This document shows, in pieces, positions 10,305 through 53,500 of a DNA stretch of 64,000 nucleotides. Position numbers and translations under genes: made by a program. The notes below the pieces were generated by a model, which saw nothing but the letters and a program-made list of their open reading frames with translations, made no database searches and was not told the DNA's origin. Every line of letters begins with the position of its first letter. Positions within the stretch are counted from its first letter, which is position 1. This stretch comes from Eledone cirrhosa (Eukaryota). The stretch covers positions 4,526,001 to 4,590,000 of the forward strand of contig OZ024760.1 of the NCBI GenBank assembly GCA_964016885.1, read 5' to 3'.

Positions 10305-10445
10305 TTAGTTTATTAAAGAACAACTACCCTGTCTCTCTCTTTGTATTTGGCTTCTTGAAATTTGGTTGAGTTCACCTGCTGGAGTTTCAGGGGGACTAAT
10401 TGATGGTGGTGGTAATGGGCCAGACTGGATGTCTTGTTGTGAGAC
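10305..10445 (-). CDS. CCDC17: CCDC17-like terminal exon ([15 protein letters not shown]...SLIN*)
   Basis: attcag acceptor, phase 0, TAA 10307-10305. Confidence 0.75.
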   Translation of the reverse strand, partial: VSQQDIQSGPLPPPSISPPETPAGELNQISRSQIQRERQGSCSLIN

Positions 10446-12064: not shown

Positions 12065-12101
<37 letters not shown>

Positions 12102-17750: not shown

Positions 17751-17781
<31 letters not shown>

Positions 17782-19743: not shown

Positions 19744-19784
<41 letters not shown>

Positions 19785-20534
19785 GGGATTTTACTGAATA
19801 CTATACCAACTCTGTACCTAATTGAGTACGACCCTGATCTGTGATCTGCATATTGCAACCACTTCTTATATAATAGGTATATAAATATAGGCATGGAGGT
19901 GCAGTTAAGGATAAGAGCAGGCATGGCTGTGTTGTTAAGAAGTTTGCTTTGCAACCACATGGATGCAAGTTCACTACCACTGTATGGCTCCTTGGGCAAG
20001 TGCCCTCTAATATAGCCAGAAGTTGACCAATGCCTTGTAAGTAAAATTTAATAGACTAGGATTTTTTTCAACACGCTGACGTGTGTGTGTGTCTATATGT
20101 ATGGGTATTGAAATATAAACACCCAAACACAGACACACTTACAAAAGTGCATTCACACAAACGTTCACGCAAACACACATACATACATAAAAAAAAACAT
20201 ATATATGAACCCAAAGAGGGACACTGAATATCCTATGCTAGCCCCTCTCTCACCTAAAACAAAACCCTCTTCCTTGAATTTTGAGAAGAGGTACATCGAT
20301 GAATGTTGTCATTGGACCTTTATTAAGTGGCCTTTGTTCTCTGGTGTGATTACAGAAGATTGATCTTAAAAGAGATATGAAACCAATAACTGAATAAAAG
20401 AAGATATTTGTAAAGGGAGAGAACTACTTTACCTTGCAGTCTTGCTTCCATTTCTAACTTCTGCATCTGAGACAAAACATCAGCTCTTTGACCTCCATTC
20501 CTCACATATTCATCTTTTAGGTTTCTGCCAATAT

Positions 20535-20579
<45 letters not shown>

Positions 20580-29500: not shown

Positions 29501-32500
29501 CTCTGTTCTTAGCCCCCTCCTGTTCATCATAGTCCTGCAGGCAATAACGGAGGAGTTTAAGACCGGATGCCCATGGGAACTCCTGTATGCTGATGACCTC
29601 GCACTCATAGCTGAATCTATGGTAGAACTAGAGAATAAATTCCAAACCTGGAAGCAGGGACTAGAGAGAAAGGGCCTCAAAGTCAACATGACAAAGACTA
29701 AGGTCCTTGTAAGTAGACGAGAAAACAGAACCCAGATCCCCTCAGGGAAATGGCCTTGCTCAGTATGTAGGAAAGGTGTAGGTAGGAACTCCATTCTCTG
29801 CCCCAAATGCAAACAATGGGTACACAAGAGATGTAGCGGGATCTCAGGAAGCTTAATTAAGAATGTAGGATTCACATGCAGCAGCTGTGCTGAAACAGCA
29901 AGCAAACAGCCACAGGAAACAAGTACCACCAATCTCTGGGAGGGCCCTGTAGAAACAGTAGGCAGCTTCTGCTACCTAGGTGACCGAATTAGCAACGGAG
30001 GTGGGTGCTCAGAAAGTACAATAACTAGGGTAAGAACGGGATGGAAGAAGTTTAGGGAACTACTACCACTGCTAGCTGCAAAAGGCTTCTCCCTCAGAAT
30101 GAAAGGCAGACTGTATGATACGTGTATCCGAACAGCGATGTTGCATGGTAGTGAGACCTGGGCGCTGAAGGTGGAAGACTTACGTAGATTAGAGAGAAAC
30201 GAAGCCTGCATGCTCCGATGGATGTGTAACAGTAATATACGTGAACGACAAAGCATAAAGGAATTGAGAGAGAGACTGAGCATAAGAGGAATCAAATGCT
30301 GCGTGCAGGAGAGGCGGTTACGCTGGTATGGACATGTGATGCATATGAAGGATGACAGCTGCATAAAAAGGTGCAGAGCACTAGAAGTTGATGGAAACCG
30401 CGGAGTGGGGAGACCCAAGATGACTTGGGATGAGGTGATAAAAGCCGACCTTACCCAACTACACCTCTCAAAGACAATGACACACGACCGTGACTTCTGG
30501 CGTCACGCAGTAATACAGGGTACCCGACCTCCCATGGGTACATGCTGAAGCATATAAACAATATGCCCCCACTCCCCCCACCGCAAGGTGGTCGTGGAGG
30601 TGCCACGGCAAAAAAAGCACCCAGCCCACACTGTAAAGTGGACGTGTAGGCGCCACGAAAAAGCACCCAGCACTCACTGTAAATGAGGTTGGTGTTAGGA
30701 AGGGCATCCAGCTGTAGAAATCAAGCCAGATCAGTTCCTGTATGAGCAAGGCATGGTCAGCCGACCAGACACTGCCCACAACAGGACAACCCGTCTAACC
30801 CATGCTAGCGTGGAAGAACGGACGTAAAACGGTGATGATGATGATGATGATGATGATTGCACATCATTACTGTTTTTCTGAGCACAGCTCTATGTGCCTT
30901 GGGTATGAGCAGTTTAGTTTTTGCTGATGTTGTTTCTATTGTATTGAATGTACTTGTAGTAATATGTGTGCAGTGCCTAGTAGTGCTATTTTTGTATGCT
31001 GTATATATTTGTAAGTCCTGGGGTTTTGGCTATGTATTAATCTGTGTGTGTTTATCAATCCTAGAGCACCTATTATTATAGGTATTGTTTCTGTTTTCAT
31101 TTTCAACATTCGAGGCTGTTTTTATATCTTGTGGCCATGATAAAAGAGGTATGGTGAACACACTTGAAAGGTTTGAAGACGAGCACTTTCCTCTTTGAAG
31201 AATCCCTGATTAACTTCTTCAGATTCCACTTGAGGAGGAAAATAAGGGTAGAGAGAGAAGTGATACCTTCAAAGCAATTTGTTGAAAGGTGGGTGAGAGA
31301 AGCGAGCATGGTCCGAGTGAATGGGCCCACTCTGAGTGTAAGCCTGTAGATTGGAGGACTAGAACTGGGACAGGGCACTTGCCCTAAAGATCAGAGCATC
31401 TGTGGTTTTATGGGGTTTTTTCCATGAATGATCCTCAAAGTCTCCTCCCTATTGAGGAATCTTCTCTGTTATTTTTTTTTTAAACATTGTTGAAATTTAT
31501 TTACATGCAAAACTCACACACCAACACATACACACTCTATGTTTTCATCCTGTACTGTCATAAGGTTTTTCTTGATGTAAACCCTTTGTGGTTAATAAAG
31601 AAATCATTATTATTATTATTATTATTATTATTGGCAGATGTAAATAATTTTAGGGCAATGGATTGGCAGTATCGGTAGAGCGTCAGACACCATGTTTTGC
31701 AGTATAGAGTTACGGCCCTTTACATTTTCAGTTCAAATCCCGCCGAGGTTAGATTTGACTTTCGTCCTTATGTGGTCGATAAAATAAAGCACCAGTAATG
31801 CACCGGGGTCGATTTAATCAACTTTCCCCCTCCCCTCAAATTGCTGGCCTTGTGTCTAAAGTAGAGTAAGAAATTATAGCCAAATATCTGATAATACTTC
31901 ATATAAACTACATGGAAAATAGCTTACTTTGTTCTTCTTCTTGTAATTGTTGACTTCTGTGGAGGAGCTCCTTTAAAGCAGCATCAGATTCTTCTTTGAA
32001 GGTGCCTTCATTTCGAGAAACAACCAGTCTCTCAACCCCTGCCCTTTCGCCAAACTGGAAATGGTCCTTGACAGAACAAACAAAAAAAATTTTTAATTTT
32101 AAAATTTAAACCAGTTGATCAAGTAACAGTATAATGGTGATAGTGATAGTGGTGATTGTGATGGTGATGATGGTGATAGTGGTGATTGTGATGGTGGTGA
32201 TGGACATAGTGATAGTGGTGATTGTGATGGTGATGATGGTGATAGTGGTGATTGTGATGGTGGTGATGGACATAGTGATAGTGGTGATTGTGATGGTGAT
32301 GATGGAGTTAGTGATAGTGGTGATTGTGATGGTGGTGATGGACATAGTGATAGTGGTGATTGTGATGGTGATGATGGTGATAGTGGTGATTGTGATGGTG
32401 ATGATGGAGATAGTGATAGTGGTGATTGTGATGGTGATGATGGAGTTAGTGATAGTGGTGATTGTGATGGTGATGATGGAGTTAGTGATAGTGGTGATTG

Positions 32501-35500
32501 TGATGGTGATGATGGAGTTAGTGATAGTGGTGATTGTGATGGTGGTGATGGACATAGTGATAGTGGTGATTGTGATGGTGATGATGGTGATTGTGATGGT
32601 GATGATGGAGATAGTGATAGTGGTGATTGTGATGGTGATGATGGACATAGTGATAGTGGTGATTGTGATGATGATGATGGACATAGTGATAGTGGTGATT
32701 GTGATGATGATGATGGAGTTAGTGATAGTGGTGATTGTGATGGTGATGATGGAGATAGTGATAGTGGTGATTGTGATGATGATGATGGACATAGTGATAG
32801 TGGTGATTGTGATGATGATGATGGAGATAGTGATAGTGGTGATTGTGATGGTGATGATGGAGTTAGTGATAGTGGTGATTGTGATGGTGATGATGGACAT
32901 AGTGATAGTGGTGATTGTGATGATGATGATGGACATAGTGATAGTGGTGATTGTGATGATGATGATGGACATAGTGATAGTGGTGATTGTGATGATGATG
33001 ATGGACATAGTGATAGTGGTGATTGTGATGATGATGATGGAGATAGTGATAGTGGTGATTGTGATGATGATGATGGACATAGTGATAGTGGTGATTGTGA
33101 TGATGATGATGGACATAGTGATAGTGGTGATTGTGATGATGATGATGGACATAGTGATAGTGGTGATTGTGATGATGATGATGGACATAGTGATAGTGGT
33201 GATTGTGATGGTGATGATGGACATAGTGATAGTGGTGATTGTGATGGTGATGATGGAGTTAGTGATAGTGGTGATTGTGATGGTGATGATGGAGTTAGTG
33301 ATAGTGGTGATTGTGATGGTGATGATGGACATAGTGATAGTGGTGATTGTGATGATGATGATGGAGATAGTGATAGTGGTGATTGTGATGGTGATGATGG
33401 ACATAGTGATAGTGGTGATTGTGATGATGATGATGGACATAGTGATAGTGGTGATTGTGATGGTGATGATGGACATAGTGATAGTGGTGATTGTGATGGT
33501 GATGATGGAGTTAGTGATAGTGGTGATTGTGATGGTGATGATGGACATAGTGATAGTGGTGATTGTGATGATGATGATGGACATAGTGATAGTGGTGATT
33601 GTGATGGTGATGATGGACATAGTGATAGTGGTGATTGTGATGGTGATGATGGAGTTAGTGATAGTGGTGATTGTGATGGTGATGATGGACATAGTGATAG
33701 TGGTGATTGTGATGATGATGATGGACATAGTGATAGTGGTGATTGTGATGATGATGATGGAGTTAGTGATAGTGGTGATTGTGATGATGATGATGGACAT
33801 AGTGATAGTGGTGATTGTGATGGTGATGATGGACATAGTGATAGTGGTGATTGTGATGGTGATGATGGAGTTAGTGATAGTGGTGATTGTGATGGTGATG
33901 ATGGACATAGTGATAGTGGTGATTGTGATGATGATGATGGACATAGTGATAGTGGTGATTGTGATGATGATGATGGAGTTAGTGATAGTGGTGATTGTGA
34001 TGATGATGATGGACATAGTGATAGTGGTGATTGTGATGGTGATGATGGACATAGTGATAGTGGTGATTGTGATGGTGATGATGGACATAGTGATAGTGGT
34101 GATTGTGATGATGATGATGGAGTTAGTGATAGTGGTGATTGTGATGATGATGATGGAGTTAGTGATAGTGGTGATTGTGATGGTGATGATGGAGATAGTG
34201 ATAGTGGTGATTGTGATGATGATGATGGACATAGTGATAGTGGTGATTGTGATGGTGATGATGGACATAGTGATAGTGGTGATTGTGATGGTGATGATGG
34301 AGTTAGTGATAGTGGTGATTGTGATGGTGATGATGGAGATAGTGATAGTGGTGATTGTGATGATGATGATGGAGTTAGTGATAGTGGTGATTGTGATGGT
34401 GATGATGGAGTTAGTGATAGTGGTGATTGTGATGATGATGGACATAGTGATAGTGGTGATTGTGATGATGATGATGGAGTTAGTGATAGTGGTGATTGTG
34501 ATGATGATGATGGACATAGTGATAGTGGTGATTGTGATGGTGATGATGGACATAGTGATAGTGGTGATTGTGATGGTGATGATGGAGTTAGTGATAGTGG
34601 TGATTGTGATGGTGATGATGGACATAGTGATAGTGGTGATTGTGATGATGATGATGGACATAGTGATAGTGGTGATTGTGATGATGATGATGGAGTTAGT
34701 GATAGTGGTGATTGTGATGATGATGATGGACATAGTGATAGTGGTGATTGTGATGGTGATGATGGACATAGTGATAGTGGTGATTGTGATGGTGATGATG
34801 GACATAGTGATAGTGGTGATTGTGATGGTGATGATGGAGTTAGTGATAGTGGTGATTGTGATGGTGATGATGGAGTTAGTGATAGTGGTGATTGTGATGA
34901 TGATGATGGAGTTAGTGATAGTGGTGATTGTGATGATGATGATGGAGTTAGTGATAGTGGTGATTGTGATGGTGATGATGGAGATAGTGATAGTGGTGAT
35001 TGTGATGATGATGATGGACATAGTGATAGTGGTGATTGTGATGGTGATGATGGACATAGTGATAGTGGTGATTGTGATGATGATGATGGAGTTAGTGATA
35101 GTGGTGATTGTGATGATGATGATGGACATAGTGATAGTGGTGATTGTGATGATGATGATGGAGATAGTGATAGTGGTGATTGTGATGATGATGATGGACA
35201 TAGTGATAGTGGTGATTGTGATGGTGATGATGGACATAGTGATAGTGGTGATTGTGATGATGATGATGGACATAGTGATAGTGGTGATTGTGATGATGAT
35301 GATGGACATAGTGATAGTGGTGATTGTGATGGTGATGATGGAGTTAGTGATAGTGGTGATTGTGATGGTGATGATGGACATAGTGATAGTGGTGATTGTG
35401 ATGATGATGATGGAGTTAGTGATAGTGGTGATTGTGATGATGATGATGGAGATAGTGATAGTGGTGATTGTGATGGTGATGATGGAGATAGTGATAGTGG

Positions 35501-38500
35501 TGATTGTGATGATGATGATGGACATAGTGATAGTGGTGATTGTGATGATGATGATGGAGTTAGTGATAGTGGTGATTGTGATGATGATGATGGAGATAGT
35601 GATAGTGGTGATTGTGATGGTGATGATGGAGATAGTGATAGTGGTGATTGTGATGATGATGATGGACATAGTGATAGTGGTGATTGTGATGATGATGATG
35701 GAGATAGTGATAGTGGTGATTGTGATGGTGATGATGGACATAGTGATAGTGGTGATTGTGATGGTGATGATGGAGTTAGTGATAGTGGTGATTGTGATGG
35801 TGATGATGGAGATAGTGATAGTGGTGATTGTGATGGTGATGATGGAGTTAGTGATAGTGGTGATTGTGATGATGATGATGGACATAGTGATAGTGGTGAT
35901 TGTGATGGTGATGATGGAGTTAGTGATAGTGGTGATTGTGATGGTGATGATGGAGTTAGTGATAGTGGTGATTGTGATGATGATGATGGACATAGTGATA
36001 GTGGTGATTGTGATGATGATGATGGACATAGTGATAGTGGTGATTGTGATGATGATGATGGAGTTAGTGATAGTGGTGATTGTGATGGTGATGATGGAGT
36101 TAGTGATAGTGGTGATTGTGATGATGATGATGGACATAGTGATAGTGGTGATTGTGATGATGATGATGGACATAGTGATAGTGGTGATTGTGATGGTGAT
36201 GATGGAGTTAGTGATAGTGGTGATTGTGATGATGATGATGGAGATAGTGATAGTGGTGATTGTGATGGTGATGATGGAGTTAGTGATAGTGGTGATTGTG
36301 ATGATGATGATGGAGTTAGTGATAGTGGTGATTGTGATGATGATGATGGACATAGTGATAGTGGTGATTGTGATGGTGATGATGGAGATAGTGATAGTGG
36401 TGATTGTGATGATGATGATGGAGTTAGTGATAGTGGTGATTGTGATGATGATGATGGACATAGTGATAGTGGTGATTGTGATGGTGATGATGGACATAGT
36501 GATAGTGGTGATTGTGATGAGGATGATGGACATAGTGATAGTGGTGATTGTGATGGTGATGATGGACATAGTGATAGTGGTGATTGTGATGAGGATGATG
36601 GACATAGTGATAGTGGTGATTGTGATGGTGATGATGGACATAGTGATAGTGGTGATTGTGATGAGGATGATGGACATAGTGATAGTGGTGATTGTGATGG
36701 TGATGATGGAGATAGTGATAGTGGTGATTGTGATGGTGATGATGGAGATAGTGATAGTGGTGATTGTGATGATGATGATGGACATAGTGATAGTGGTGAT
36801 TGTGATGGTGATGATGGACATAGTGATAGTGGTGATTGTGATGAGGATGATGGACATAGTGATAGTGGTGATTGTGATGGTGATGATGGAGATAGTGATA
36901 GTGGTGATTGTGATGGTGATGATGGAGTTAGTGATAGTGGTGATTGTGATGATGATGATTGACATAGTGATAGTGGTGATTGTGATGATGATGATGGACA
37001 TAGTGATAGTGGTGATTGTGATGATGATGATGGACATAGTGATAGTGGTGATTGTGATGGTGATGATGGAGATAGTGATAGTGGTGATTGTGATGATGAT
37101 GATGGAGATAGTGATAGTGGTGATTGTGATGATGATGATGGACATAGTGATAGTGGTGATTGTGATGGTGATGATGGAGTTAGTGATAGTGGTGATTGTG
37201 ATGGTGATGATGGAGATAGTGATAGTGGTGATTGTGATGGTGATGATGGACATAGTGATAGTGGTGATTGTGATGGTGATGATGGACATAGTGATAGTGG
37301 TGATTGTGATGATGATGATGGACATAGTGATAGTGGTGATTGTGATGATGATGATGGACATAGTGATAGTGGTGATTGTGATGATGATGATGGAGATAGT
37401 GATAGTGGTGATTGTGATGGTGATGATGGAGTTAGTGATAGTGGTGATTGTGATGGTGATGATGGAGATAGTGATAGTGGTGATTGTGATGGTGATGATG
37501 GACATAGTGATAGTGGTGATTGTGATGGTGATGATGGAGATAGTGATAGTGGTGATTGTGATGGTGATGATGGAGATAGTGATAGTGGTGATTGTGATGG
37601 TGATGATGGACATAGTGATAGTGGTGATTGTGATGAGGATGATGGACATAGTGATAGTGGTGATTGTGATGGTGATGATGGGAGATAGTGATAGTGGTGA
37701 TTGTGATGGTGATGATGGACATAGTGATAGTGGTGATTGTGATGATGATGATGGACATAGTGATAGTGGTGATTGTGATGGTGATGATGGAGTTAGTGAT
37801 AGTGGTGATTGTGATGGTGATGATGGAGATAGTGATAGTGGTGATTGTGATGGTGATGATGGACATAGTGATAGTGGTGATTGTGATGGTGATGATGGAG
37901 ATAGTGATAGTGGTGATTGTGATGGTGATGATGGAGATAGTGATAGTGGTGATTGTGATGGTGATGATGGACATAGTGATAGTGGTGATTGTGATGAGGA
38001 TGATGGACATAGTGATAGTGGTGATTGTGATGGTGATGATGGAGATAGTGATAGTGGTGATTGTGATGGTGATGATGGACATAGTGATAGTGGTGATTGT
38101 GATGAGGATGATGGACATAGTGATAGTGGTGATTGTGATGGTGATGATGGAGATAGTGATAGTGGTGATTGTGATGGTGATGATGGAGTTAGTGATAGTG
38201 GTGATTGTGATGATGATGATGGACATAGTGATAGTGGTGATTGTGATGATGATGATGGACATAGTGATAGTGGTGATTGTGATGAGGATGATGGACATAG
38301 TGATAGTGGTGATTGTGATGAGGATGATGGACATAGTGATAGTGGTGATTGTGATGGTGATGATGGAGATAGTGATAGTGGTGATTGTGATGGTGATGAT
38401 GGAGTTAGTGATAGTGGTGATTGTGATGATGATGATGGAGTTAGTGATAGTGGTGATTGTGATGGTGATGATGGACATAGTGATAGTGGTGATTGTGATG

Positions 38501-41500
38501 AGGATGATGGACATAGTGATAGTGGTGATTGTGATGGTGATGATGGAGATAGTGATAGTGGTGATTGTGATGGTGATGATGGAGTTAGTGATAGTGGTGA
38601 TTGTGATGGTGATGATGGACATAGTGATAGTGGTGATTGTGATGATGATGATGGAGATAGTGATAGTGGTGATTGTGATGGTGATGATGGACATAGTGAT
38701 AGTGGTGATTGTGATGATGATGATGGACATAGTGATAGTGGTGATTGTGATGATGATGATGGAGTTAGTGATAGTGGTGATTGTGATGGTGATGATGGAG
38801 TTAGTGATAGTGGTGATTGTGATGGTGGTGATGGACATAGTGATAGTGGTGATTGTGATGGTGATGATGGACATAGTGATAGTGGTGATTGTGATGGTGA
38901 TGATGGAGATAGTGATAGTGGTGATTGTGATGGTGATGATGGACATAGTGATAGTGGTGATTGTGATGATGATGATGGACATAGTGATAGTGGTGATTGT
39001 GATGATGATGATGGAGTTAGTGATAGTGGTGATTGTGATGGTGATGATGGAGATAGTGATAGTGGTGATTGTGATGATGATGATGGACATAGTGATAGTG
39101 GTGATTGTGATGATGATGATGGAGATAGTGATAGTGGTGATTGTGATGGTGATGATGGAGTTAGTGATAGTGGTGATTGTGATGGTGATGATGGAGTTAG
39201 TGATAGTGGTGATTGTGATGATGATGATGGACATAGTGATAGTGGTGATTGTGATGATGATGATGGACATAGTGATAGTGGTGATTGTGATGATGATGAT
39301 GGACATAGTGATAGTGGTGATTGTGATGATGATGATGGACATAGTGATAGTGGTGATTGTGATGGTGATGATGGACATAGTGATAGTGGTGATTGTGATG
39401 ATGATGATGGACATAGTGATAGTGGTGATTGTGATGATGATGATGGACATTAGTGATAGTGGTGATTGTGATGGTGATGATGGACATAGTGATAGTGGTG
39501 ATTGTGATGATGATGATGGACATAGTGATAGTGGTGATTGTGATGATGATGATGGACATAGTGATAGTGGTGATTGTGATGATGATGATGGACATAGTGA
39601 TAGTGGTGATTGTGATGATGATGATGGAGTTAGTGATAGTGGTGATTGTGATGGTGATGATGGACATAGTGATAGTGGTGATTGTGATGATGATGATGGA
39701 GATAGTGATAGTGGTGATTGTGATGATGATGATGGACATAGTGATAGTGGTGATTGTGATGGTGATGATGGAGATAGTGATAGTGGTGATTGTGATGATG
39801 ATGATGGAGTTAGTGATAGTGGTGATTGTGATGGTGATGATGGACATAGTGATAGTGGTGATTGTGATGATGATGATGGACATAGTGATAGTGGTGATTG
39901 TGATGATGATGATGGACATAGTGATAGTGGTGATTGTGATGATGATGATGGACATAGTGATAGTGGTGATTGTGATGGTGATGATGGAGTTAGTGATAGT
40001 GGTGATTGTGATGATGATGATGGAGTTAGTGATAGTGGTGATTGTGATGGTGATGATGGAGACATAGTGATAGTGGTGATTGTGATGGTGATGATGGACA
40101 TAGTGATAGTGGTGATTGTGATGATGATGATGGAGATAGTGATAGTGGTGATTGTGATGGTGATGATGGACATAGTGATAGTGGTGATTGTGATGATGAT
40201 GATGGACATAGTGATAGTGGTGATTGTGATGATGATGATGGAGATAGTGATAGTGGTGATTGTGATGATGATGATGGAGTTAGTGATAGTGGTGATTGTG
40301 ATGGTGATGATGGACATAGTGATAGTGGTGATTGTGATGATGATGATGGACATAGTGATAGTGGTGATTGTGATGATGATGATGGAGATAGTGATAGTGG
40401 TGATTGTGATGATGATGATGGACATAGTGATAGTGGTGATTGTGATGGTGATGATGGACATAGTGATAGTGGTGATTGTGATGGTGATGATGGAGTTAGT
40501 GATAGTGGTGATTGTGATGGTGATGATGGACATAGTGATAGTGGTGATTGTGATGGTGATGATGGACATAGTGATAGTGGTGATTGTGATGGTGATGATG
40601 GAGTTAGTGATAGTGGTGATTGTGATGGTGATGATGGAGATAGTGATAGTGGTGATTGTGATGATGATGATGGACATAGTGATAGTGGTGATTGTGATGG
40701 TGATGATGGAGTTAGTGATAGTGGTGATTGTGATGATGATGATGGACATAGTGATAGTGGTGATTGTGATGGTGATGATGGAGTTAGTGATAGTGGTGAT
40801 TGTGATGATGATGATGGACATAGTGATAGTGGTGATTGTGATGGTGATGATGGACATAGTGATAGTGGTGATTGTGATGGTGATGATGGAGTTAGTGATA
40901 GTGGTGATTGTGATGGTGATGATGGAGATAGTGATAGTGGTGATTGTGATGGTGATGATGGAGTTAGTGATAGTGGTGATTGTGATGATGATGATGGAGT
41001 TAGTGATAGTGGTGATTGTGATGATGATGATGGAGTTAGTGATAGTGGTGATTGTGATGGTGATGATGGAGATAGTGATAGTGGTGATTGTGATGGTGAT
41101 GATGGAGATAGTGATAGTGGTGATTGTGATGGTGATGATGGACATAGTGATAGTGGTGATTGTGATGGTGATGATGGAGTTAGTGATAGTGGTGATTGTG
41201 ATGGTGATGATGGAGTTAGTGATAGTGGTGATTGTGATGGTGATGATGGAGTTAGTGATAGTGGTGATTGTGATGATGATGATGGAGTTAGTGATAGTGG
41301 TGATTGTGATGATGATGATGGAGTTAGTGATAGTGGTGATTGTGATGGTGATGATGGAGTTAGTGATAGTGGTGATTGTGATGGTGATGATGGAGATAGT
41401 GATAGTGGTGATTGTGATGATGATGATGGAGTTAGTGATAGTGGTGATTGTGATGGTGATGATGGAGTTAGTGATAGTGGTGATTGTGATGGTGATGATG

Positions 41501-44500
41501 GAGATAGTGATAGTGGTGATTGTGATGATGATGATGGAGTTAGTGATAGTGGTGATTGTGATGGTGATGATGGAGATAGTGATAGTGGTGATTGTGATGA
41601 TGATGATGGACATAGTGATAGTGGTGATTGTGATGGTGATGATGGACATAGTGATAGTGGTGATTGTGATGATGATGATGGAGTTAGTGATAGTGGTGAT
41701 TGTGATGATGATGATGGACATAGTGATAGTGGTGATTGTGATGGTGATGATGGACATAGTGATAGTGGTGATTGTGATGATGATGATGGACATAGTGATA
41801 GTGGTGATTGTGATGGTGATGATGGAGATAGTGATAGTGGTGATTGTGATGATGATGATGGACATAGTGATAGTGGTGATTGTGATGGTGATGATGGACA
41901 TAGTGATAGTGGTGATTGTGATGATGATGATGGAGTTAGTGATAGTGGTGATTGTGATGATGATGATGGACATAGTGATAGTGGTGATTGTGATGATGAT
42001 GATGGAGATAGTGATAGTGGTGATTGTGATGATGATGATGGACATAGTGATAGTGGTGATTGTGATGGTGATGATGGACGATAGTGATAGTGGTGATTGT
42101 GATGATGATGATGGAGTTAGTGATAGTGGTGATTGTGATGATGATGATGGACATAGTGATAGTGGTGATTGTGATGATGATGATGGACATAGTGATAGTG
42201 GTGATTGTGATGGTGATGATGGAGTTAGTGATAGTGGTGATTGTGATGGTGATGATGGAGTTAGTGATAGTGGTGATTGTGATGATGATGATGGAGTTAG
42301 TGATAGTGGTGATTGTGATGGTGATGATGGAGATAGTGATAGTGGTGATTGTGATGGTGATGATGGAGTTAGTGATAGTGGTGATTGTGATGATGATGAT
42401 GGAGATAGTGATAGTGGTGATTGTGATGGTGATGATGGAGTTAGTGATAGTGGTGATTGTGATGATGATGATGGAGTTAGTGATAGTGGTGATTGTGATG
42501 ATGATGATGGAGTTAGTGATAGTGGTGATTGTGATGGTGATGATGGACATAGTGATAGTGGTGATTGTGATGATGATGATGGACATAGTGATAGTGGTGA
42601 TTGTGATGATGATGATGGACATAGTGATAGTGGTGATTGTGATGATGATGATGGACATAGTGATAGTGGTGATTGTGATGGTGATGATGGAGTTAGTGAT
42701 AGTGGTGATTGTGATGATGATGATGGAGATAGTGATAGTGGTGATTGTGATGGTGATGATGGAGATAGTGATAGTGGTGATTGTGATGGTGATGATGGAG
42801 TTAGTGATAGTGGTGATTGTGATGATGATGATGGAGTTAGTGATAGTGGTGATTGTGATGATGATGATGGACATAGTGATAGTGGTGATTGTGATGGTGA
42901 TGATGGAGATAGTGATAGTGGTGATTGTGATGATGATGATGGACATAGTGATAGTGGTGATTGTGATGGTGATGATGGACATAGTGATAGTGGTGATTGT
43001 GATGAGGATGATGGACATAGTGATAGTGGTGATTGTGATGATGATGATGGACATAGTGATAGTGGTGATTGTGATGGTGATGATGGAGATAGTGATAGTG
43101 GTGATTGTGATGGTGATGATGGAGATAGTGATAGTGGTGATTGTGATGGTGATGATGGACATAGTGATAGTGGTGATTGTGATGAGGATGATGGACATAG
43201 TGATAGTGGTGATTGTGATGGTGATGATGGAGATAGTGATAGTGGTGATTGTGATGGTGATGATGGACATAGTGATAGTGGTGATTGTGATGAGGATGAT
43301 GGACATAGTGATAGTGGTGATTGTGATGGTGATGATGGAGATAGTGATAGTGGTGATTGTGATGGTGATGATGGAGTTAGTGATAGTGGTGATTGTGATG
43401 ATGATGATGGACATAGTGATAGTGGTGATTGTGATGATGATGATGGACATAGTGATAGTGGTGATTGTGATGAGGATGATGGACATAGTGATAGTGGTGA
43501 TTGTGATGAGGATGATGGACATAGTGATAGTGGTGATTGTGATGGTGATGATGGAGATAGTGATAGTGGTGATTGTGATGGTGATGATGGAGTTAGTGAT
43601 AGTGGTGATTGTGATGATGATGATGGAGTTAGTGATAGTGGTGATTGTGATGGTGATGATGGACATAGTGATAGTGGTGATTGTGATGATGATGATGGAC
43701 ATAGTGATAGTGGTGATTGTGATGATGATGATGGACATAGTGATAGTGGTGATTGTGATGGTGATGATGGACATAGTGATAGTGGTGATTGTGATGATGA
43801 TGATGGAGATAGTGATAGTGGTGATTGTGATGATGATGATGGAGTTAGTGATAGTGGTGATTGTGATGGTGATGATGGACATAGTGATAGTGGTGATTGT
43901 GATGATGATGATGGACATAGTGATAGTGGTGATTGTGATGATGATGATGGAGATAGTGATAGTGGTGATTGTGATGATGATGATGGAGATAGTGATAGTG
44001 GTGATTGTGATGATGATGATGGAGATAGTGATAGTGGTGATTGTGATGGATGATGATGGACATAGTGATAGTGGTGATTGTGATGATGATGATGGACATA
44101 GTGATAGTGGTGATTGTGATGATGATGATGGAGATAGTGATAGTGGTGATTGTGATGATGATGATGGACATAGTGATAGTGGTGATTGTGATGGTGATGA
44201 TGGACATAGTGATAGTGAGATTGTGTGATGATGTGACTGAGTGTGATGGACATAGTGATAGTGGTGATTGTGATGATGATGATGGAGCATAGTGATAGTG
44301 GTGATTGTGATGGTGATGATGGACATAGTGATAGTGGTGATTGTGATGATGATGATGGACATAGTGATAGTGGTGATTGTGATGATGATGATGGAGATAG
44401 TGATAGTGGTGATTGTGATGGATGATGATGGACATAGTGATAGTGGTGATTGTGATGATGATGATGGACATAGTGATAGTGGTGATTGTGATGATGATGA

Positions 44501-47500
44501 TGGAGATAGTGATAGTGGTGATTGTGATGAGTGATGATGGACATAGTGATAGTGGTGATTGTGATGGTGATGATGGATAGTGAGTGTGATTGTGATGTGA
44601 TGATGAGATAGTGATAGTGGTGATTGTGATGGTGATGATGGACATAGTGATAGTGGTGATTGTGATGATGATGATGGACATAGTGATAGTGGTGATTGTG
44701 ATGGTGATGATGGAGATAGTGATAGTGGTGATTGTGATGGTGATGATGGACATAGTGATAGTGGTGATTGTGATGATGATGATGGACATAGTGATAGTGG
44801 TGATTGTGATGATGATGATGGAGTTAGTGATAGTGGTGATTGTGATGGATGATGATGGACATAGTGATAGTGGTGATTGTGATGATGATGATGGACATAG
44901 TGATAGTGGTGATTGTGATGATGATGATGGACATAGTGATAGTGGTGATTGTGATGGTGATGATGGACATAGTGATAGTGGTGATTGTGATGATGATGAT
45001 GGACATAGTGATAGTGGTGATTGTGATGATGATGATGGAGATAGTGATAGTGGTGATTGTGATGTGATGATGGACATAGTGATAGTGGTGATTGTGATGA
45101 TGATGATGGACATAGTGATAGTGGTGATTGTGATGGTGATGATGGAGTTAGTGATAGTGGTGATTGTGATGGTGATGATGGACATAGTGATAGTGGTGAT
45201 TGTGATGATGATGATGGAGTTAGTGATAGTGGTGATTGTGATGGTGATGATGGAGATAGTGATAGTGGTGATTGTGATGATGATGATGGACATAGTGATA
45301 GTGGTGATTGTGATGATGATGATGGAGATAGTGATAGTGGTGATTGTGATGATGATGATGGACATAGTGATAGTGGTGATTGTGATGATGATGATGGAGC
45401 ATAGTGATAGTGGTGATTGTGATGATGATGATGGACATAGTGATAGTGGTGATTGTGATGGTGATGATGGACATAGTGATAGTGGTGATTGTGATGGTGA
45501 TGATGGAGTTAGTGATAGTGGTGATTGTGATGATGGAGATAGTGATAGTGGTGATTGTGATGGTGATGATGGACATAGTGATAGTGGTGATTGTGATGAT
45601 GATGATGGAGTTAGTGATAGTGGTGATTGTGATGATGATGAGATAGTGATAGTGGTGATTGTGATGATGATGATGGACATAGTGATAGTGGTGATTGTGA
45701 TGATGATGATGGACATAGTGATAGTGGTGATTGTGATGGTGATGATGGACATAGTGATAGTGGTGATTGTGATGATGATGATGGACATAGTGATAGTGGT
45801 GATTGTGATGATGATGATGGACATAGTGATAGTGGTGATTGTGATGGTGATGATGGAGTTAGTGATAGTGGTGATTGTGATGGTGATGATGGAGTTAGTG
45901 ATAGTGGTGATTGTGATGATGATGATGGACATAGTGATAGTGGTGATTGTGATGGTGATGATGGAGATAGTGATAGTGGTGATTGTGATGATGATGATGG
46001 AGATAGTGATAGTGGTGATTGTGATGATGATGATGGACATAGTGATAGTGGTGATTGTGATGGTGATGATGGACATAGTGATAGTGGTGATTGTGATGAT
46101 GATGATTGGGAGATAGTGATAGTGGTGATTGTGATGGTGATGATGGACATAGTGATAGTGGTGATTGTGATGATGATGATGGACATAGTGATAGTGGTGA
46201 TTGTGATGGTGATGATGGAGTTAGTGATAGTGGTGATTGTGATGGTGATGATGGACATAGTGATAGTGGTGATTGTGATGATGATGATGGAGATAGTGAT
46301 AGTGGTGATTGTGATGATGATGATGGAGATAGTGATAGTGGTGATTGTGATGATGATGATGGAGATAGTGATAGTGGTGATTGTGATGGTGATGATGGAG
46401 TTAGTGATAGTGGTGATTGTGATGATGATGATGGACATAGTGATAGTGGTGATTGTGATGATGATGATGGAGTTAGTGATAGTGGTGATTGTGATGATGA
46501 TGATGGACATAGTGATAGTGGTGATTGTGATGGTGATGATGGAGTTAGTGATAGTGGTGATTGTGATGGATGATTGTATGGAGATAGTGATAGTGGTGAT
46601 TGTGATGATGATGATGGAGATAGTGATAGTGGTGATTGTGATGCAGATGATGATGGAGTTAGTGATAGTGGTGATTGTGATGAGTGATGATGGAGTTAGT
46701 GATACGTATGGAGTTAGTGATAGTGGTGATTGTGATGGTGATGATGGAGATAGTGATAGTGGTGATTGTGATGATGATGATGGAGATAGTGATAGTGGTG
46801 ATTGTGATGGTGATGATGGAGATAGTGATAGTGGTGATTGTGATGGTGATGATGGACATAGTGATAGTGGTGATTGTGATGGTGATGATGGACATAGTGA
46901 TAGTGGTGATTGTGATGATGATGATGGAATAGTGATAGTGGTGATTGTGATGATGATGATGGAGATAGTGATAGTGGTGATTGTGATGATGATGATGGAG
47001 CTTAGTGATAGTGGTGATTGTGATGGTGATGATGGAGTTAGTGATAGTGGTGATTGTGATGGTGATGATGGAGATAGTGATAGTGGTGATTGTGATGGTG
47101 ATGATGGAGATAGTGATAGTGGTGATTGTGATGGTGATGATGGAGATAGTGATAGTGGTGATTGTGATGGTGATGATGGACATAGTGATAGTGGTGATTG
47201 TGATGATGATGATGGAGATAGTGATAGTGGTGATTGTGATGATGATGATGGACATAGTGATAGTGGTGATTGTGATGATGATGATGGAGTTAGTGATAGT
47301 GGTGATTGTGATGGTGATGATGGAGTTAGTGATAGTGGTGATTGTGATGGTGATGATGGAGATAGTGATAGTGGTGATTGTGATGATGATGATGGAGTTA
47401 GTGATAGTGGTGATTGTGATGGTGATGATGGAGTTAGTGATAGTGGTGATTGTGATGATGTGATGATGGACATAGTGATAGTGGTGATTGTGATGGTGAT

Positions 47501-50500
47501 GATGGAGATAGTGATAGTGGTGATTGTGATGATGATGATGGAGTTAGTGATAGTGGTGATTGTGATGATGATGATGGAGTTAGTGATAGTGGTGATTGTG
47601 ATGATGATGATGGAGTTAGTGATAGTGGTGATTGTGATGGTGATGATGGAGATAGTGATAGTGGTGATTGTGATGATGATGATGGAGTTAGTGATAGTGG
47701 TGATTGTGATGGTGATGATGGAGATAGTGATAGTGGTGATTGTGATGGTGATGATGGAGATAGTGATAGTGGTGATTGTGATGGTGATGATGGACGATAG
47801 TGATAGTGGTGATTGTGATGGATGATGATGGAGATAGTGATAGTGGTGATTGTGATGATGATGATGGAGTTAGTGATAGTGGTGATTGTGATGATGATGA
47901 TGGAGATAGTGATAGTGGTGATTGTGATGGTGATGATGGACATAGTGATAGTGGTGATTGTGATGGTGATGATGGAGATAGTGATAGTGGTGATTGTGAT
48001 GGTGATGATGGACATAGTGATAGTGGTGATTGTGATGGTGATGATGGAGATAGTGATAGTGGTGATTGTGATGGTGATGATGGAGATAGTGATAGTGGTG
48101 ATTGTGATGATGATGATGGACATAGTGATAGTGGTGATTGTGATGATGATGATGGAGATAGTGATAGTGGTGATTGTGATGGTGATGATGGAGATTAGTG
48201 ATAGTGGTGATTGTGATGATGATGATGGACTTAGTGATAGTGGTGATTGTGATGATGATGATGGACGATAGTGATAGTGGTGATTGTGATGATGATGATG
48301 GAGATAGTGATAGTGGTGATTGTGATGATGATGATGGACATAGTGATAGTGGTGATTGTGATGATGATGATGGAGCTTAGTGATAGTGGTGATTGTGATG
48401 GTGATGATGGAGTTAGTGATAGTGGTGATTGTGATGATGATGATGGAGATAGTGATAGTGGTGATTGTGATGATGATGATGGAGATAGTGATAGTGGTGA
48501 TTGTGATGGATGATGATGGAGTAGTGATAGTGGTGATTGTGATGGTGATGATGGAGATAGTGATAGTGGTGATTGTGATGGTGATGATGGAGCATAGTGA
48601 TAGTGGTGATTGTGATGATGATGATGGAGTTAGTGATAGTGGTGATTGTGATGGTGATGATGGAGATAGTGATAGTGGTGATTGTGATGATGATGATGGA
48701 GTTAGTGATAGTGGTGATTGTGATGGTGATGATGGAGATAGTGATAGTGGTGATTGTGATGATGATGATGGAGTTAGTGATAGTGGTGATTGTGATGATG
48801 ATGATGGAGATAGTGATAGTGGTGATTGTGATGGTGATGATGGAGATAGTGATAGTGGTGATTGTGATGATGATGATGGAGATAGTGATAGTGGTGATTG
48901 TGATGATGATGATGACATAGTGATAGTGGTGATTGTGATGGTGATGATGGAGATAGTGATAGTGGTGATTGTGATGATGATGATGGACATAGTGATAGTG
49001 GTGATTGTGATGATGATGATGGACATAGTGATAGTGGTGATTGTGATGATGATGATGGAGCATAGTGATAGTGGTGATTGTGATGATGATGATGGACATA
49101 GTGATAGTGGTGATTGTGATGATGATGATGGAGATAGTGATAGTGGTGATTGTGATGGTGATGATGGAATAGTGATAGTGGTGATTGTGATGATGATGAT
49201 GGAGATAGTGATAGTGGTGATTGTGATGATGATGATGGACATAGTGATAGTGGTGATTGTGATGATGATGATGGAGATAGTGATAGTGGTGATTGTGATG
49301 ATGATGATGGAGATAGTGATAGTGGTGATTGTGATGATGATGATGGAGATAGTGATAGTGGTGATTGTGATGATGATGATGGACATAGTGATAGTGGTGA
49401 TTGTGATGGTGATGATGGACATAGTGATAGTGGTGATTGTGATGATGATGATGGAGATAGTGATAGTGGTGATTGTGATGATGATGATGGAGATAGTGAT
49501 AGTGGTGATTGTGATGATGATGATGGAGTTAGTGATAGTGGTGATTGTGATGATGATGATGGAGATAGTGATAGTGGTGATTGTGATGGTGATGATGGAG
49601 ATAGTGATAGTGGTGATTGTGATGATGATGATGGACATAGTGATAGTGGTGATTGTGATGGTGATGATGGAGTAGTGATAGTGGTGATTGTGATGGTGAT
49701 GATGGAGATAGTGATAGTGGTGATTGTGATGGTGATGATGGACATAGTGATAGTGGTGATTGTGATGATGATGATGGAGCTTAGTGATAGTGGTGATTGT
49801 GATGTGATGATGGATAGTGATAGTGGTGATTGTGATGGTGATGATGGAGATAGTGATAGTGGTGATTGTGATGATGATGATGGACATAGTGATAGTGGTG
49901 ATTGTGATGAGTGATGATGGACATAGTGATAGTGTGATTGTGATGTGATGATGGACATAGTGATAGTGGTGATTGTGATGGTGATGATGGACATAGTGAT
50001 AGTGGTGATTGTGATGGTGATGATGGATAGTGATAGTGGTGATTGTGATGATGATGATGGACATAGTGATAGTGGTGATTGTGATGATGATGATGGACAT
50101 AGTGATAGTGGTGATTGTGATGGTGATGATGGACATAGTGATAGTGGTGATTGTGATGGTGATGATGGACATAGTGATAGTGGTGATTGTGATGGTGATG
50201 ATGGACATAGTGATAGTGGTGATTGTGATGGTGATGATGGACATAGTGATAGTGGTGATTGTGATGGTGATGATGGACATAGTGATAGTGGTGATTGTGA
50301 TGGTGATGATGGACATAGTGATAGTGGTGATTGTGATGGTGATGATGGACATAGTGATAGTGGTGATTGTGATGTGATGATGGACATAGTGATAGTGGTG
50401 ATTGTGATGATGATGATGGACATAGTGATAGTGGTGATTGTGATGGTGATGATGGACATAGTGATAGTGGTGATTGTGATGGTGATGATGGACATAGTGA

Positions 50501-53500
50501 TAGTGGTGATTGTGATGGTGATGATGGACATAGTGATAGTGGTGATTGTGATGGTGATGATGGAGTAGTGATAGTGGTGATTGTGATGATGATGATGGAC
50601 ATAGTGATAGTGGTGATTGTGATGGTGATGATGGACATAGTGATAGTGGTGATTGTGATGGTGATGATGGACATAGTGATAGTGGTGATTGTGATGGTGA
50701 TGATGGACATAGTGATAGTGGTGATTGTGATGGTGATGATGGAGTTAGTGATAGTGGTGATTGTGATGATGATGATGGACATAGTGATAGTGGTGATTGT
50801 GATGATGATGATGGAGTTAGTGATAGTGGTGATTGTGATGGTGATGATGGACATAGTGATAGTGGTGATTGTGATGGTGATGATGGACATAGTGATAGTG
50901 GTGATTGTGATGGTGATGATGGACATAGTGATAGTGGTGATTGTGATGGTGATGATGGACATAGTGATAGTGGTGATTGTGATGGTGATGATGGACATAG
51001 TGATAGTGGTGATTGTGATGGTGATGATGGACATAGTGATAGTGGTGATTGTGATGGTGATGATGGACATAGTGATAGTGGTGATTGTGATGATGATGAT
51101 GGAGTTAGTGATAGTGGTGATTGTGATGATGATGATGGAGTTAGTGATAGTGGTGATTGTGATGGTGATGATGGAGTTAGTGATAGTGGTGATTGTGATG
51201 GTGATGATGGAGTTAGTGATAGTGGTGATTGTGATGATGATGATGGACATAGTGATAGTGGTGATTGTGATGATGATGATGGACATAGTGATAGTGGTGA
51301 TTGTGATGGTGATGATGGACATAGTGATAGTGGTGATTGTGATGATGATGATGGAGATAGTGATAGTGGTGATTGTGATGGTGATGATGGACATAGTGAT
51401 AGTGGTGATTGTGATGATGATGATGGAGTTAGTGATAGTGGTGATTGTGATGGTGATGATGGAGATAGTGATAGTGGTGATTGTGATGATGATGATGGAC
51501 ATAGTGATAGTGGTGATTGTGATGATGATGATGGAGTTAGTGATAGTGGTGATTGTGATGATGATGATGGAGTTAGTGATAGTGGTGATTGTGATGGTGA
51601 TGATGGAGTTAGTGATAGTGGTGATTGTGATGGTGATGATGGAGTTAGTGATAGTGGTGATTGTGATGATGATGATGGACATAGTGATAGTGGTGATTGT
51701 GATGGTGATGATGGAGTTAGTGATAGTGGTGATTGTGATGGTGATGATGGAGATAGTGATAGTGGTGATTGTGATGATGATGATGGACATAGTGATAGTG
51801 GTGATTGTGATGGTGATGATGGAGTTAGTGATAGTGGTGATTGTGATGGTGATGATGGAGATAGTGATAGTGGTGATTGTGATGGTGATGATGGAGATAG
51901 TGATAGTGGTGATTGTGATGATGATGATGGAGATAGTGATAGTGGTGATTGTGATGGTGATGATGGTGATAGTGGTGATTGTGATGATGATGATGGAGTT
52001 AGTGATAGTGGTGATTGTGATGATGATGATGGAGTTAGTGATAGTGGTGATTGTGATGATGATGATGGACATAGTGATAGTGGTGATTGTGATGATGATG
52101 ATGGAGTTAGTGATAGTGGTGATTGTGATGATGATGATGGACATAGTGATAGTGGTGATTGTGATGGTGATGATGGAGTTAGTGATAGTGGTGATTGTGA
52201 TGGTGATGATGGAGATAGTGATAGTGGTGATTGTGATGGTGATGATGGAGATAGTGATAGTGGTGATTGTGATGGTGATGATGGAGATAGTGATAGTGGT
52301 GATTGTGATGGTGATGATGGAGATAGTGATAGTGGTGATTGTGATGATGATGATGGACATAGTGATAGTGGTGATTGTGATGATGATGATGGAGTTAGTG
52401 ATAGTGGTGATTGTGATGGTGATGATGGACATAGTGATAGTGGTGATTGTGATGATGATGATGGAGTTAGTGATAGTGGTGATTGTGATGGTGATGATGG
52501 ACATAGTGATAGTGGTGATTGTGATGATGATGATGGAGATAGTGATAGTGGTGATTGTGATGAGGATGGGGATAGAGGTAGTGTCAATGGTGAGTGAGGT
52601 GACGTGGATGATTGCGATTGTGATGATTTAATGGACCAAAGTACGATAAAATTATATATAATGCAAGGAAGGAGAAACATATCTCACCTTTTTTGCAGGA
52701 GATTGCCAAGGTCGGCTGTTGCTATGCTGTGTAGAGGGGTAACAGTTGGCATGGTAACCTTGTAAAGCTTCTTCAGCAGGGGCAGTCATTTCAAAACATT
52801 TGCATCTGGTAACCAGCTAGTGGAATAATATAGCATATACAGGTATATATGTATGTATGGGCACATAACTCTATCAAGAGTTATAGGGGGACTGAAGTGA
52901 CATACAGTGTATATTAGACATTTTTAAACCTGGAGGAACCCATCCCTTCACCAAGTCTGAACACAGCCAATTTCTTCCAGAGAGTTATAGAGAGGAAGTG
53001 AGAAAGAGATGTAGAGGAAGAATCAACCCCAGTACTGGATTGGTATATTTTTCATTGACCTCAAATGGATGATAGTATTTGGAGCAATTGTACTTATAAA
53101 ATCACGGTAAAAGAGTTTTAGAGAACATGTCAAAATTGAACATATGAGCAAGATAGTCATCATTTTATTGACTTCAAACGTATTAAAGGCAAAGTTTACC
53201 TTGGTGGGATTTGAACTGAGGGTGTAGCGAGAAGTTCTCACACATTTGTAGCCACTGCTCCACCCCTCACAGCCACATAATACCCTCAGCGCCTCCCAAC
53301 CCTATGTCTATCTAGATAATGCTTATCAAATATTATTATAATTTGAATACGAGGCGGTGAATTGGCAGTATCGGTAGAGGGTCGGACACCATGATTTGAC
53401 GCATAGAGTTACGGCCCTTGCCATTCTGAGTTCAAACCCCGCCGATGTTAACTTTGCCTTTCATTCTTATAGGGTCGATAAAATAAAGTACCAGTAATAC

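Follow-up and report, generated by a model that had tools for sequence, protein, structure and literature searches.

A 36-bp minisatellite fills the first coding intron of an octopod CCDC17 orthologue and is probably a tolerated single-locus expansion

The first coding intron of the CCDC17 orthologue of Eledone cirrhosa is filled almost from end to end by a minisatellite of known kind that is confined to a single locus. In the window analysed here (the whole stretch of 64,000 nucleotides from contig OZ024760.1), the array runs over 32134..52568 on the minus strand as about 568 copies of a 36-bp unit, with 94% matches and six interspersed main variants. The array is probably a tolerated expansion that arose from a decayed (ATC/ACC)n microsatellite and persists because it likely does little harm. 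An earlier note on this DNA had interpreted the lack of AG and the wealth of YCAY motifs on the transcribed RNA as marks of a KH-protein scaffold, a sponge or a transcription timer. Analysis upheld the identity of the gene and its intron, the motif counts and the view that binding is physically possible, but it did not support the features as marks of such a device, since they follow from the (ATC/ACC)n origin and recur in unrelated arrays.

Results

The gene that hosts the array was recognised, in agreement with the earlier note, as a CCDC17 orthologue by its homology to Octopus proteins and by the CCDC17 Pfam domains found on its homologues. The coding span extends over 10308..52789 on the minus strand and comprises 13 coding exons, some with approximate boundaries, starting near 52789, 32066, 27958, 22411, 20524, 19427, 17745, 15231, 14152, 13228, 12497, 11406 and 10445. 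Exons were placed by Octopus proteins; for the two near 14152 and 10445, a short scan and translation were used. A tblastn comparison of the O. sinensis protein P0005 with the locus gave 11 segments at 60-86% identity. Precomputed annotation places PF28454 and PF28455, which correspond to CCDC17_middle_coil and CCDC17_C (first Atlas match 0.92, 210/256 features), on the homologues P0001 and P0002, the former having been found by exhaustive protein search. Use of the local Pfam copy returned no match for the CCDC17 domains, single exons gave nothing above cut-off against Pfam and no match in a word-indexed protein database, and P0005 had no matching solved structure. An upstream search for the alternative first exons of P0002 and P0006 found neither.

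The first coding exon (52688..52789, minus strand) ends in ...SPAKK at a phase-0 donor, AAG followed by GTGAGA, and aligns with residues 1-34 of P0005 at 60% identity (E 1.7e-5). The second (31928..32066, minus strand; (DHFQ)...EEEQ, phase-1 donor GTAAGC) aligns with residues 38-82 at 67% identity (E 1.4e-12). Between them, the array leaves a 5' flank of 119 bases on the donor side (52569..52687, minus strand) and a 3' flank (32067..32133, minus strand) holding a U-rich tract and the first AG, which at 32068-32067 is likely the acceptor; another AG, also in frame, is found at 32056-32055. The acceptor had been set at 32055: the intron stands, but its end is probably 32067, the first AG after the U-rich tract, 12 bases upstream and in frame; with this end, agreement with the O. 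sinensis protein is slightly better (score 214 vs 204). The array makes up 20,435 of the 20,621 intron bases (99.1%) and approaches to 119 bases from the donor and 66 bases from the likely acceptor, both much as described before. We counted two observations here against a tolerated expansion, namely the reach of the array to within 66 bases of the acceptor and the disagreement of the O. sinensis gene models P0002 and P0005 at the array-proximal junction. Positions 31837-32133 are covered by a short-read contig (run X1), possibly from the assembly's own sample, with 0 differences and 35 further letters. The splice signals outside the array are intact, as is the reading frame of the gene in which it sits. 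Among the matches listed for run X9, which was dominated by repeats, none joined two exons, and a search for RNA data on the locus returned none; neither outcome bears on expression.

Two variable sites generate the six main variants, to which 496 of the 563 delimited units belong, and these are interspersed along the array with no short higher-order period. A 17-unit block carrying a rare variant (37871..38482) recurs exactly at 43059-43670, 144 units or 5.2 kb away, with different flanking units at each copy (local score 34; the highest value reached in 100 shuffles was 16). A head-to-tail unit with a period of 36, within the range of about 10-100 bp, and interspersed variant repeats place the array among the minisatellites. 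It had been called a satellite; it is indeed a tandem array but belongs to no satellite family, which would form very long or multi-locus arrays of one unit, as it is one 20-kb array. Its chromosome measures 35 Mb, and the array is 4.5 Mb from the end; no Rfam family was found within 30500-55000.

We also considered the array as coding sequence and rejected this. Frames are Asp-rich or Val/Ile/Met-rich on the plus strand, and on the minus strand they are rich in His, Ser/Pro or Ile/Thr; the common variants cause a residue change whichever open frame is read, the 136 AAC-type units put a stop into the His frame, no clean acceptor leads into the array, and read-through from the donor stops after 12 codons.

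The earlier note asked whether the repeat occurs elsewhere, and the answer from the assembled genome was against it. All 261 exact matches of a 31-mer across the 3.0 Gb assembled genome fall in the window, as do 564 of 573 matches of a 21-mer, the remainder being scattered at the level of a reversed control (7). The unit differs from (ATC)12 by ten changes, with 6 of its 12 triplets reading ATC, and is on this comparison a decayed (ATC)12; (ATC)8 has 131,384 overlapping matches in the genome. About 60 bases of the 5' flank adjoining the array form a decayed ATC/ACC-like tract, which is likely the seed of the array.

The motif counts of the earlier note were confirmed for the sense (minus) strand of 32055-52687, which carries 4,523 YCAY, or 8 per unit, and 139 ACTAAC. 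Only 302 of its 20,633 bases are G, and the array sense strand is C/A-rich (G 1.5%), its clean units having no G-rich stretch. The scarcity of AG is also real: there are 8 (1 at the donor, 5 in the array, 2 at the 3' end), and clean units are AG-free. This array contains an AG-free run of 12.2 kb, longer than any other in the 1.26 Mb scanned (at most 4.2 kb outside the array), and we counted this against a tolerated expansion. Nevertheless, plain (ATC)n or (ACC)n holds 0.33 YCAY per base against 0.22 in the array, and plain (ATC)n is AG-free as well. The motif features can therefore be attributed to the (ATC/ACC)n origin; because one unit copied 568 times represents one event, the AG lack and the YCAY density are no more than the origin of the unit gives.

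Similar features were found in other repeats. In 1.26 Mb sampled, 50 of 70 other YCAY tracts are AG-free. Three arrays longer than 16 kb lie within 464 kb, and one of these matches the CCDC17 array in YCAY density, with 25 AG per kb on that strand. At a distance of 119 kb from the CCDC17 array there is a 28.5-kb array of equal YCAY density; its flanks hold transposon domains, with a glutathione peroxidase gene 35 kb off (148 of 348 filtered frames scanned). An intron of an unrelated PDZ gene holds an array of 2,348 bases whose sense strand has 680 YCAY and no AG. The odd look of the CCDC17 array is common to many ordinary repeats of this genome, which makes a tolerated expansion likely rather than an RNA device. 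Array and tract counts leave out one block at C21:30.0 Mb, where the whole 200 kb sampled is taken up by an (AATGT)n array.

We next consider whether selection has acted on strand. An array without a job could still be subject to a filter by which long intronic arrays are permitted only if their sense strand lacks acceptor AG, so that orientation and AG-free variants would be selected and not due to chance. The opposite strand of the array has 2-3 AG per unit and a predicted folding energy of -105 kcal/mol per 501 nt (0 for the sense strand), and the AG-free strand is the sense strand in both multi-kb arrays known to be intronic, as such a filter would have it, but two cases reach p 0.25 at best. 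Orientation was examined near 91 exons of known strand (267 kb, few long tracts): 106 of 151 loci were entered, most long-frame and overlapping loci were dropped by eye, and the 91 loci kept had open frames of <200 aa, their flanks being assumed intronic. An orientation bias, which the earlier note had named as a point to check, did not appear among the YCAY tracts (26 sense vs 29 antisense, p 0.79), and tracts with at least 8 sites gave 5 loci vs 5. Longer tracts (at least 15 sites) gave 5 sense vs 1 antisense at few loci (p 0.22); this result, like the strand of the two multi-kb arrays, was counted against a tolerated expansion. On the other side, ten other inter-exon intervals of CCDC17 hold 45-77 AG per kb, and a random change in the unit creates an AG in 11-12% of cases, so that about five variant events would all be AG-free by chance about half the time. 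These data make a splice filter unlikely.

A bolder proposal is that octopod genomes grow multi-kb, AG-free, unfolded sense-strand YCAY arrays as landing strips for Nova and other KH proteins. In the present case, the first coding intron would be covered by hundreds of proteins up to its acceptor, these would produce a visible nuclear spot and restrain the splicing of CCDC17 in cells rich in Nova, and microsatellite-derived minisatellites would be fast-evolving splicing regulators in cephalopods. We regard this as very unlikely. The simpler version, in which the intron, as nascent RNA, is bound by hundreds of Nova, STAR or hnRNP proteins, forms a nuclear spot and tunes the splicing of its own or other RNAs, seems hardly probable either. 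Binding itself is physically possible, as had been proposed, with the YCAY and ACTAAC motifs on RNA predicted to be unpaired and Nova and STAR-family genes in the genome. A Nova-like three-KH frame at C1:294.37 Mb has its best matches in Nova-1 and Nova-2 (best PDB match Nova-1, E 3e-47); we counted the presence of both genes against a tolerated expansion. As in Nova elements, YCAY is clustered in predicted-unpaired intronic RNA 66 and 119 bases from splice sites, in an organism with a gene for a Nova-like protein; enrichment on the sense strand over background is not seen, the density being below that of plain (ATC)n, the same density recurring in other arrays and tracts having no preferred orientation. 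Nova is mainly a neuronal protein and would be expected mainly in neurons. Human CCDC17, by contrast, marks ciliated cells in the accessible part of one report (10.1101/672626). A precedent is hTERT, in which seven YCAY of an intronic direct repeat steer splicing (excerpt of PMC6079032); this repeat, DR8, resembles the array in having YCAY within an intronic repeat, but its binding and splicing effects have been shown (same excerpt), whereas the 4,523 motifs here appear to be a by-product of base composition. Similarly, Pasilla is found at fly Y-loops, yet the passages available from that study describe its knockdown or mutants as having no Y-loop phenotype (PMC6508621).

The quality of the assembled array bears on another explanation, namely that a shorter real array was lengthened, or two alleles mixed, in the long-read assembly. 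The 3-base period is broken in 30 of 179 units within 44031..50570, whereas 4 of the 330 units on the left and none of the 54 on the right break it, so that 30 of the 34 period-breaking units lie in this noisy part. Of its small indels, 26/30 fall within 2 bases of variable columns (p 3e-10 against 11/36) and mix letters there. All 5 internal sense-strand AG are in this part, in odd units resembling consensus errors, the likely cause. The noise leaves the exact array length and these AG uncertain, and the exact 17-unit repeat could reflect two joined alleles. However, the 330 units left of 44 kb and the 54 at the right end are almost clean, the variant order is aperiodic, the duplicated block has different neighbours, and the left flank up to the array is confirmed by the short-read contig, with the reservation on its sample given above. 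We therefore hold assembly inflation to be highly improbable.

That the intron serves as a timer, delaying CCDC17 mRNA in ciliated-cell or sperm differentiation or blocking it in short cell cycles, is extremely unlikely: a 14.9-kb intron prevents completion of knrl in short embryonic cycles and Y-loop genes have been proposed as timers (both in the accessible text of PMC6508621), and the array occupies 20.4 of 42.5 kb (48%) of the coding span, nearly doubling it, but 20 kb adds minutes whereas kl-3 takes about 90 hours, any filler would serve, and similar-sized arrays are common on the chromosome.

Discussion

The array is probably best explained as a tolerated expansion, for which we propose the following course. 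Slippage and unequal exchange likely enlarged a decayed (ATC/ACC)n microsatellite into the array; the unit would have arisen from one 36-base stretch of this seed, and point changes at two sites would have spread through repeated copying. The spliceosome may locate the exons by exon definition, the array presenting no decoy acceptor. With elongation at 1-4 kb per minute, the cost of the array would be some minutes' extra transcription. Wherever KH-domain proteins meet the unfolded array RNA they would probably bind it, and such binding would be incidental and would not account for the array.

Comparable repeats are known. The array differs from TRACT of human CACNA1C in that its unit derives from (ATC)n, it is strongly strand-skewed and it fills 99% of its intron; TRACT lies in a much larger intron. 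TRACT is a 30-bp intronic VNTR of 3-30+ kb (PMC13131567; 10.1101/311795, each as far as accessible), and like the array it is single-locus and intronic, with a short unit, a length of tens of kb, few variants one base apart, and copying followed by mutation (PMC13131567). Its allele lengths and expression effects are known (PMC13131567), whereas our knowledge of the array comes from one assembly. Among human-specific VNTRs, 287 of 467 are intronic, and the array shares their unit size, single locus, variant interspersion, intronic site and enrichment towards chromosome ends (available portion of PMC8327921); the trait that defines such VNTRs is length polymorphism, and the array was read in one assembly only.

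The parallel with Drosophila giant introns, drawn in the earlier note, fails on scale. The Y-loop genes kl-3 and kl-5 resemble the present locus in having an intron that is almost all tandem repeat in a cilia- or flagella-linked gene, and satellite makes up >99% of the kl-3 locus, which extends over at least 4.3 Mb and takes about 90 h to transcribe (PMC6508621, in part). The array, at 20 kb, is about 200-fold smaller than the fly Y-loop genes; it takes up about half of the coding span, has a single-locus unit and no known special expression programme, and sits in a 20.6-kb intron rather than a megabase one. Searches of the open-access literature returned no work dealing with this locus or with cephalopod intronic minisatellites; such arrays may be covered by the repeat tables of cephalopod genomes.

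The locus provides a large, clean example of an intronic minisatellite, which could be used as a candidate polymorphic marker and as a test of long-read consensus quality. It also carries a warning that motif counts over a tandem array tally one event many times. If the Nova/KH landing-strip reading were true, the array would be a natural, non-pathogenic counterpart of repeat-RNA sequestration diseases such as SCA37, for which sequestration of NOVA2 by repeat RNAs is described (10.1101/2025.09.03.673996, in the part available), and simple repeats could rewire cephalopod splicing. For the octopod genome, the finding means that its small chromosomes carry single-locus arrays of 16-28 kb, in places every few hundred kb.

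Structure and genomic distribution of the array

Tandem Repeats Finder resolved window positions 32134-52568 as a single array of period 36, with 568 copies and 94% matches. Six variants built from two variable sites account for 496 of the 563 delimited units, and three rarer variants for 24 more. Units of different variants are mixed along the array with no short higher-order period, and a 17-unit block carrying a rare variant has an exact second copy 144 units away (score 34, against a maximum of 16 in 100 shuffles). On the minus strand, which is the sense strand, 32055-52687 contains 4,523 YCAY and 139 ACTAAC motifs, G makes up 302 of 20,633 bases, and AG occurs only eight times: once at the donor, five times in the array and twice at the 3' end. 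The earlier note had described the array and its intron accurately, down to the motif counts and the lack of AG in canonical units.

Its view of the repeat as a satellite did not hold. All 261 matches to an exact 31-mer of the unit in the 3.0-Gb assembly fell in the window, as did 564 of the 573 matches to the constant 21-mer; among the matches listed, eight lay elsewhere, scattered over six contigs, against seven for the reversed control. The repeat is therefore not dispersed, and being confined to one locus it does not form a satellite family. Its anatomy is that of a variant-repeat minisatellite. The same chromosome does carry a true satellite: (AATGT)n filled all 200 kb sampled at C21:30000001-30200000, broken here and there by short insertions, and is a candidate centromeric or pericentromeric block.

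Three arrays longer than 16 kb, including this one, were found within 464 kb. One, ACC/ATC-derived, spans 28.5 kb (C21:4410838-4439380; period about 33), 119 kb from the CCDC17 array; its + strand carries 215 YCAY and 25 AG per kb. The other, of 16.4 kb (C21:4665464-4681892), is built from 179 copies of a 92-bp unit, with 97% matches, and adjoins an apparent LINE fragment. The longest array in the other 800 kb analysed reached at most 8.4 kb, so 20-kb arrays are locally common, not general. Tandem repeats covered 19-46% of four C21 blocks and 6% of one C1 block. Two smaller repeats also occur in the window: a 39-bp minisatellite of 15 copies (98%) at 2028-2616 and, at 5881-5998, a perfect (TTTTTCC)17 tract.

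The host gene and its intron

An exhaustive protein search with a 33-residue exon retrieved one protein, P0001, annotated as uncharacterised in Octopus bimaculoides (87% identity), with further orthologues in O. sinensis, O. vulgaris and Argonauta; these relationships place the genome among the octopods. PF28454 and PF28455, named CCDC17_middle_coil and CCDC17_C in the Atlas (first hit 0.92), are present on P0001 and on the O. sinensis model P0002; the two best Atlas structural rows were CCDC17 clusters with weak TM-scores (0.42 and 0.39). A 542-residue O. sinensis isoform aligned by tblastn in 11 minus-strand segments from 52789 to 11299 (60-86% identity), and scanning with translation located two additional small exons. 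The array lies between coding exons 1 and 2, an assignment based on homology to predicted proteins. The first AG past the U-rich tract (32068-32067) is in frame, lies 12 bases upstream of the acceptor proposed earlier and matches the homologue slightly better (score 214 versus 204). With this acceptor, 66 bases from the array end, the putative intron measures 20,621 bases, of which the array makes up 99.1%. Splice signals are intact beyond the array.

Intron 2 contains a LINE-like stretch (28500-30700) matched by contigs from two sequencing runs labelled as other organisms (1-9 differences in 210-450 bases), one of which contains little else of the region; either recent horizontal spread or contamination would account for this. 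Intron 3 carries an LTR-retrotransposon remnant with several broken frames (23900-26980, minus strand; RVT_1 E 5e-5). Neighbours include a glutathione peroxidase gene with an in-frame TGA (C21:4474103-4475800) and an exon near C21:4655800 that we take to be ribosomal protein L10.

Origin of the motif content and orientation of YCAY tracts

Read in triplets, the unit is ATC at 6 of 12 positions and stands 10 changes from (ATC)12. About 60 bases past the donor-side array end form a decayed tract of ATC/ACC-like kind, and the genome holds 131,384 overlapping (ATC)8 matches. Plain (ATC)n or (ACC)n is AG-free and has 0.33 YCAY per base, against 0.22 in the array, so the array holds fewer YCAY per base than the sequence from which it probably arose. 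Its motif total, in the thousands, comes from counting a single unit 568 times. In 1.26 Mb sampled, with the two giant arrays excluded, 50 of 70 YCAY tracts lacked AG on the YCAY strand. Since 11-12% of random changes to the unit create a sense-strand AG, about five AG-free variant events have a chance of 0.53.

Selection for an AG-free sense strand in long intronic arrays is an unlikely alternative, though one with an observation in its favour: in both known intronic multi-kb arrays, this one and a 2,348-base array of period 51 in an intron splitting one PDZ domain (C12:6479094-6481441; 680 YCAY in sense, with AG absent), the AG-free strand is the sense strand. Against it, the ten other inter-exon intervals of the CCDC17 gene hold 45-77 AG per kb, so AG-free introns are not required by the gene. 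Orientation was assessed around matches to KH, STAR, WD40, SH3, PDZ and RRM domains whose strand was known; 106 of 151 loci were entered and 91 with short open frames retained (267 kb). Tracts of at least 6 sites were sense in 26 cases and antisense in 29 (p 0.79), those of at least 8 sites in 12 and 9 (5 loci each), and those of at least 15 sites in 5 and 1 (p 0.22). AG was absent from all 21 tracts of at least 8 sites, in either orientation. The orientation bias raised earlier is thus absent for ordinary tracts, in a sample too small for multi-kb arrays.

Possible RNA function and assembly quality

A 501-base piece of the array was predicted to be unpaired in sense (0 kcal/mol) and folded in antisense (-105 kcal/mol). 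The genome encodes one STAR-domain gene and a three-KH frame (C1:294370803-294372323) whose closest matches among solved structures are Nova-1 and Nova-2 (E 3e-47). Given these, binding to the array RNA is plausible where protein and transcript meet. The three KH domains lie in one 559-residue open frame with no intervening intron. At C14:31.60-31.65 Mb, C21:9.16 Mb, C7:42.14 Mb and further sites, several genes carry three or four RRM domains within a single long open frame, which suggests intronless copies of RNA-binding protein genes.

Of the proposed KH-protein scaffold, plausible binding is what stood; the array's features are generic. We consider a scaffold or splice switch improbable, and hardly less so the bolder reading that AG-free YCAY intron arrays are Nova/KH landing strips regulating splicing in octopods. 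Nova is mostly neuronal. Human CCDC17, by contrast, marks ciliated cells (10.1101/672626, in part), and fly Pasilla located on Y-loops gave no knockdown phenotype (PMC6508621, in part). In favour, a few YCAY in an intronic repeat can steer splicing at hTERT DR8 (PMC6079032, extract), the array approaches the acceptor closely, and two O. sinensis gene models disagree at the exon 1/exon 2 junction.

Inflation of the array by the assembly is equally improbable. Units off the three-base period numbered 30 of 179 at 44.0-50.6 kb, and 26 of 30 small indels lay at variable columns, mixing letters of two variants (p 3e-10); the left (4/330) and right (0/54) parts were nearly clean, and a short-read contig, possibly from the assembly's own sample, matched the left flank up to the array without difference. 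All five internal sense-strand AG fall in odd units, which we attribute to faulty consensus; the real array probably lacks AG on that strand, and its length is less certain than the assembly implies.

A transcription timer is barely credible: 20 kb takes minutes at usual elongation rates, although a 14.9-kb intron matters in very short cell cycles (PMC6508621, in part). The Drosophila giant-intron parallel also falls away, the array being no Y-loop, in contrast to kl-3 (4.3 Mb, about 90 hours; PMC6508621, in part).

A probable tolerated minisatellite expansion

The array groups with large intronic minisatellites on three features: a short tandem unit, a single locus and interspersed variants. 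CACNA1C TRACT is one such (30-bp unit, 3-30+ kb; PMC13131567, in part), and among human-specific VNTRs 287 of 467 lie within introns (PMC8327921, in part). In the literature, supplements aside, we found no account of the CCDC17 locus or of such arrays in cephalopods. The confinement to one locus, the derivation of the unit from ATC, the mixing of variants, the duplicated block, the generic composition and the intact splice signals outside the array lead us to favour, with fair confidence, tolerated single-locus expansion from a microsatellite seed. Slippage and unequal exchange would have built the array, which may be tolerated because its sense strand offers no decoy acceptor and only weak GT context; proteins would bind its RNA passively.
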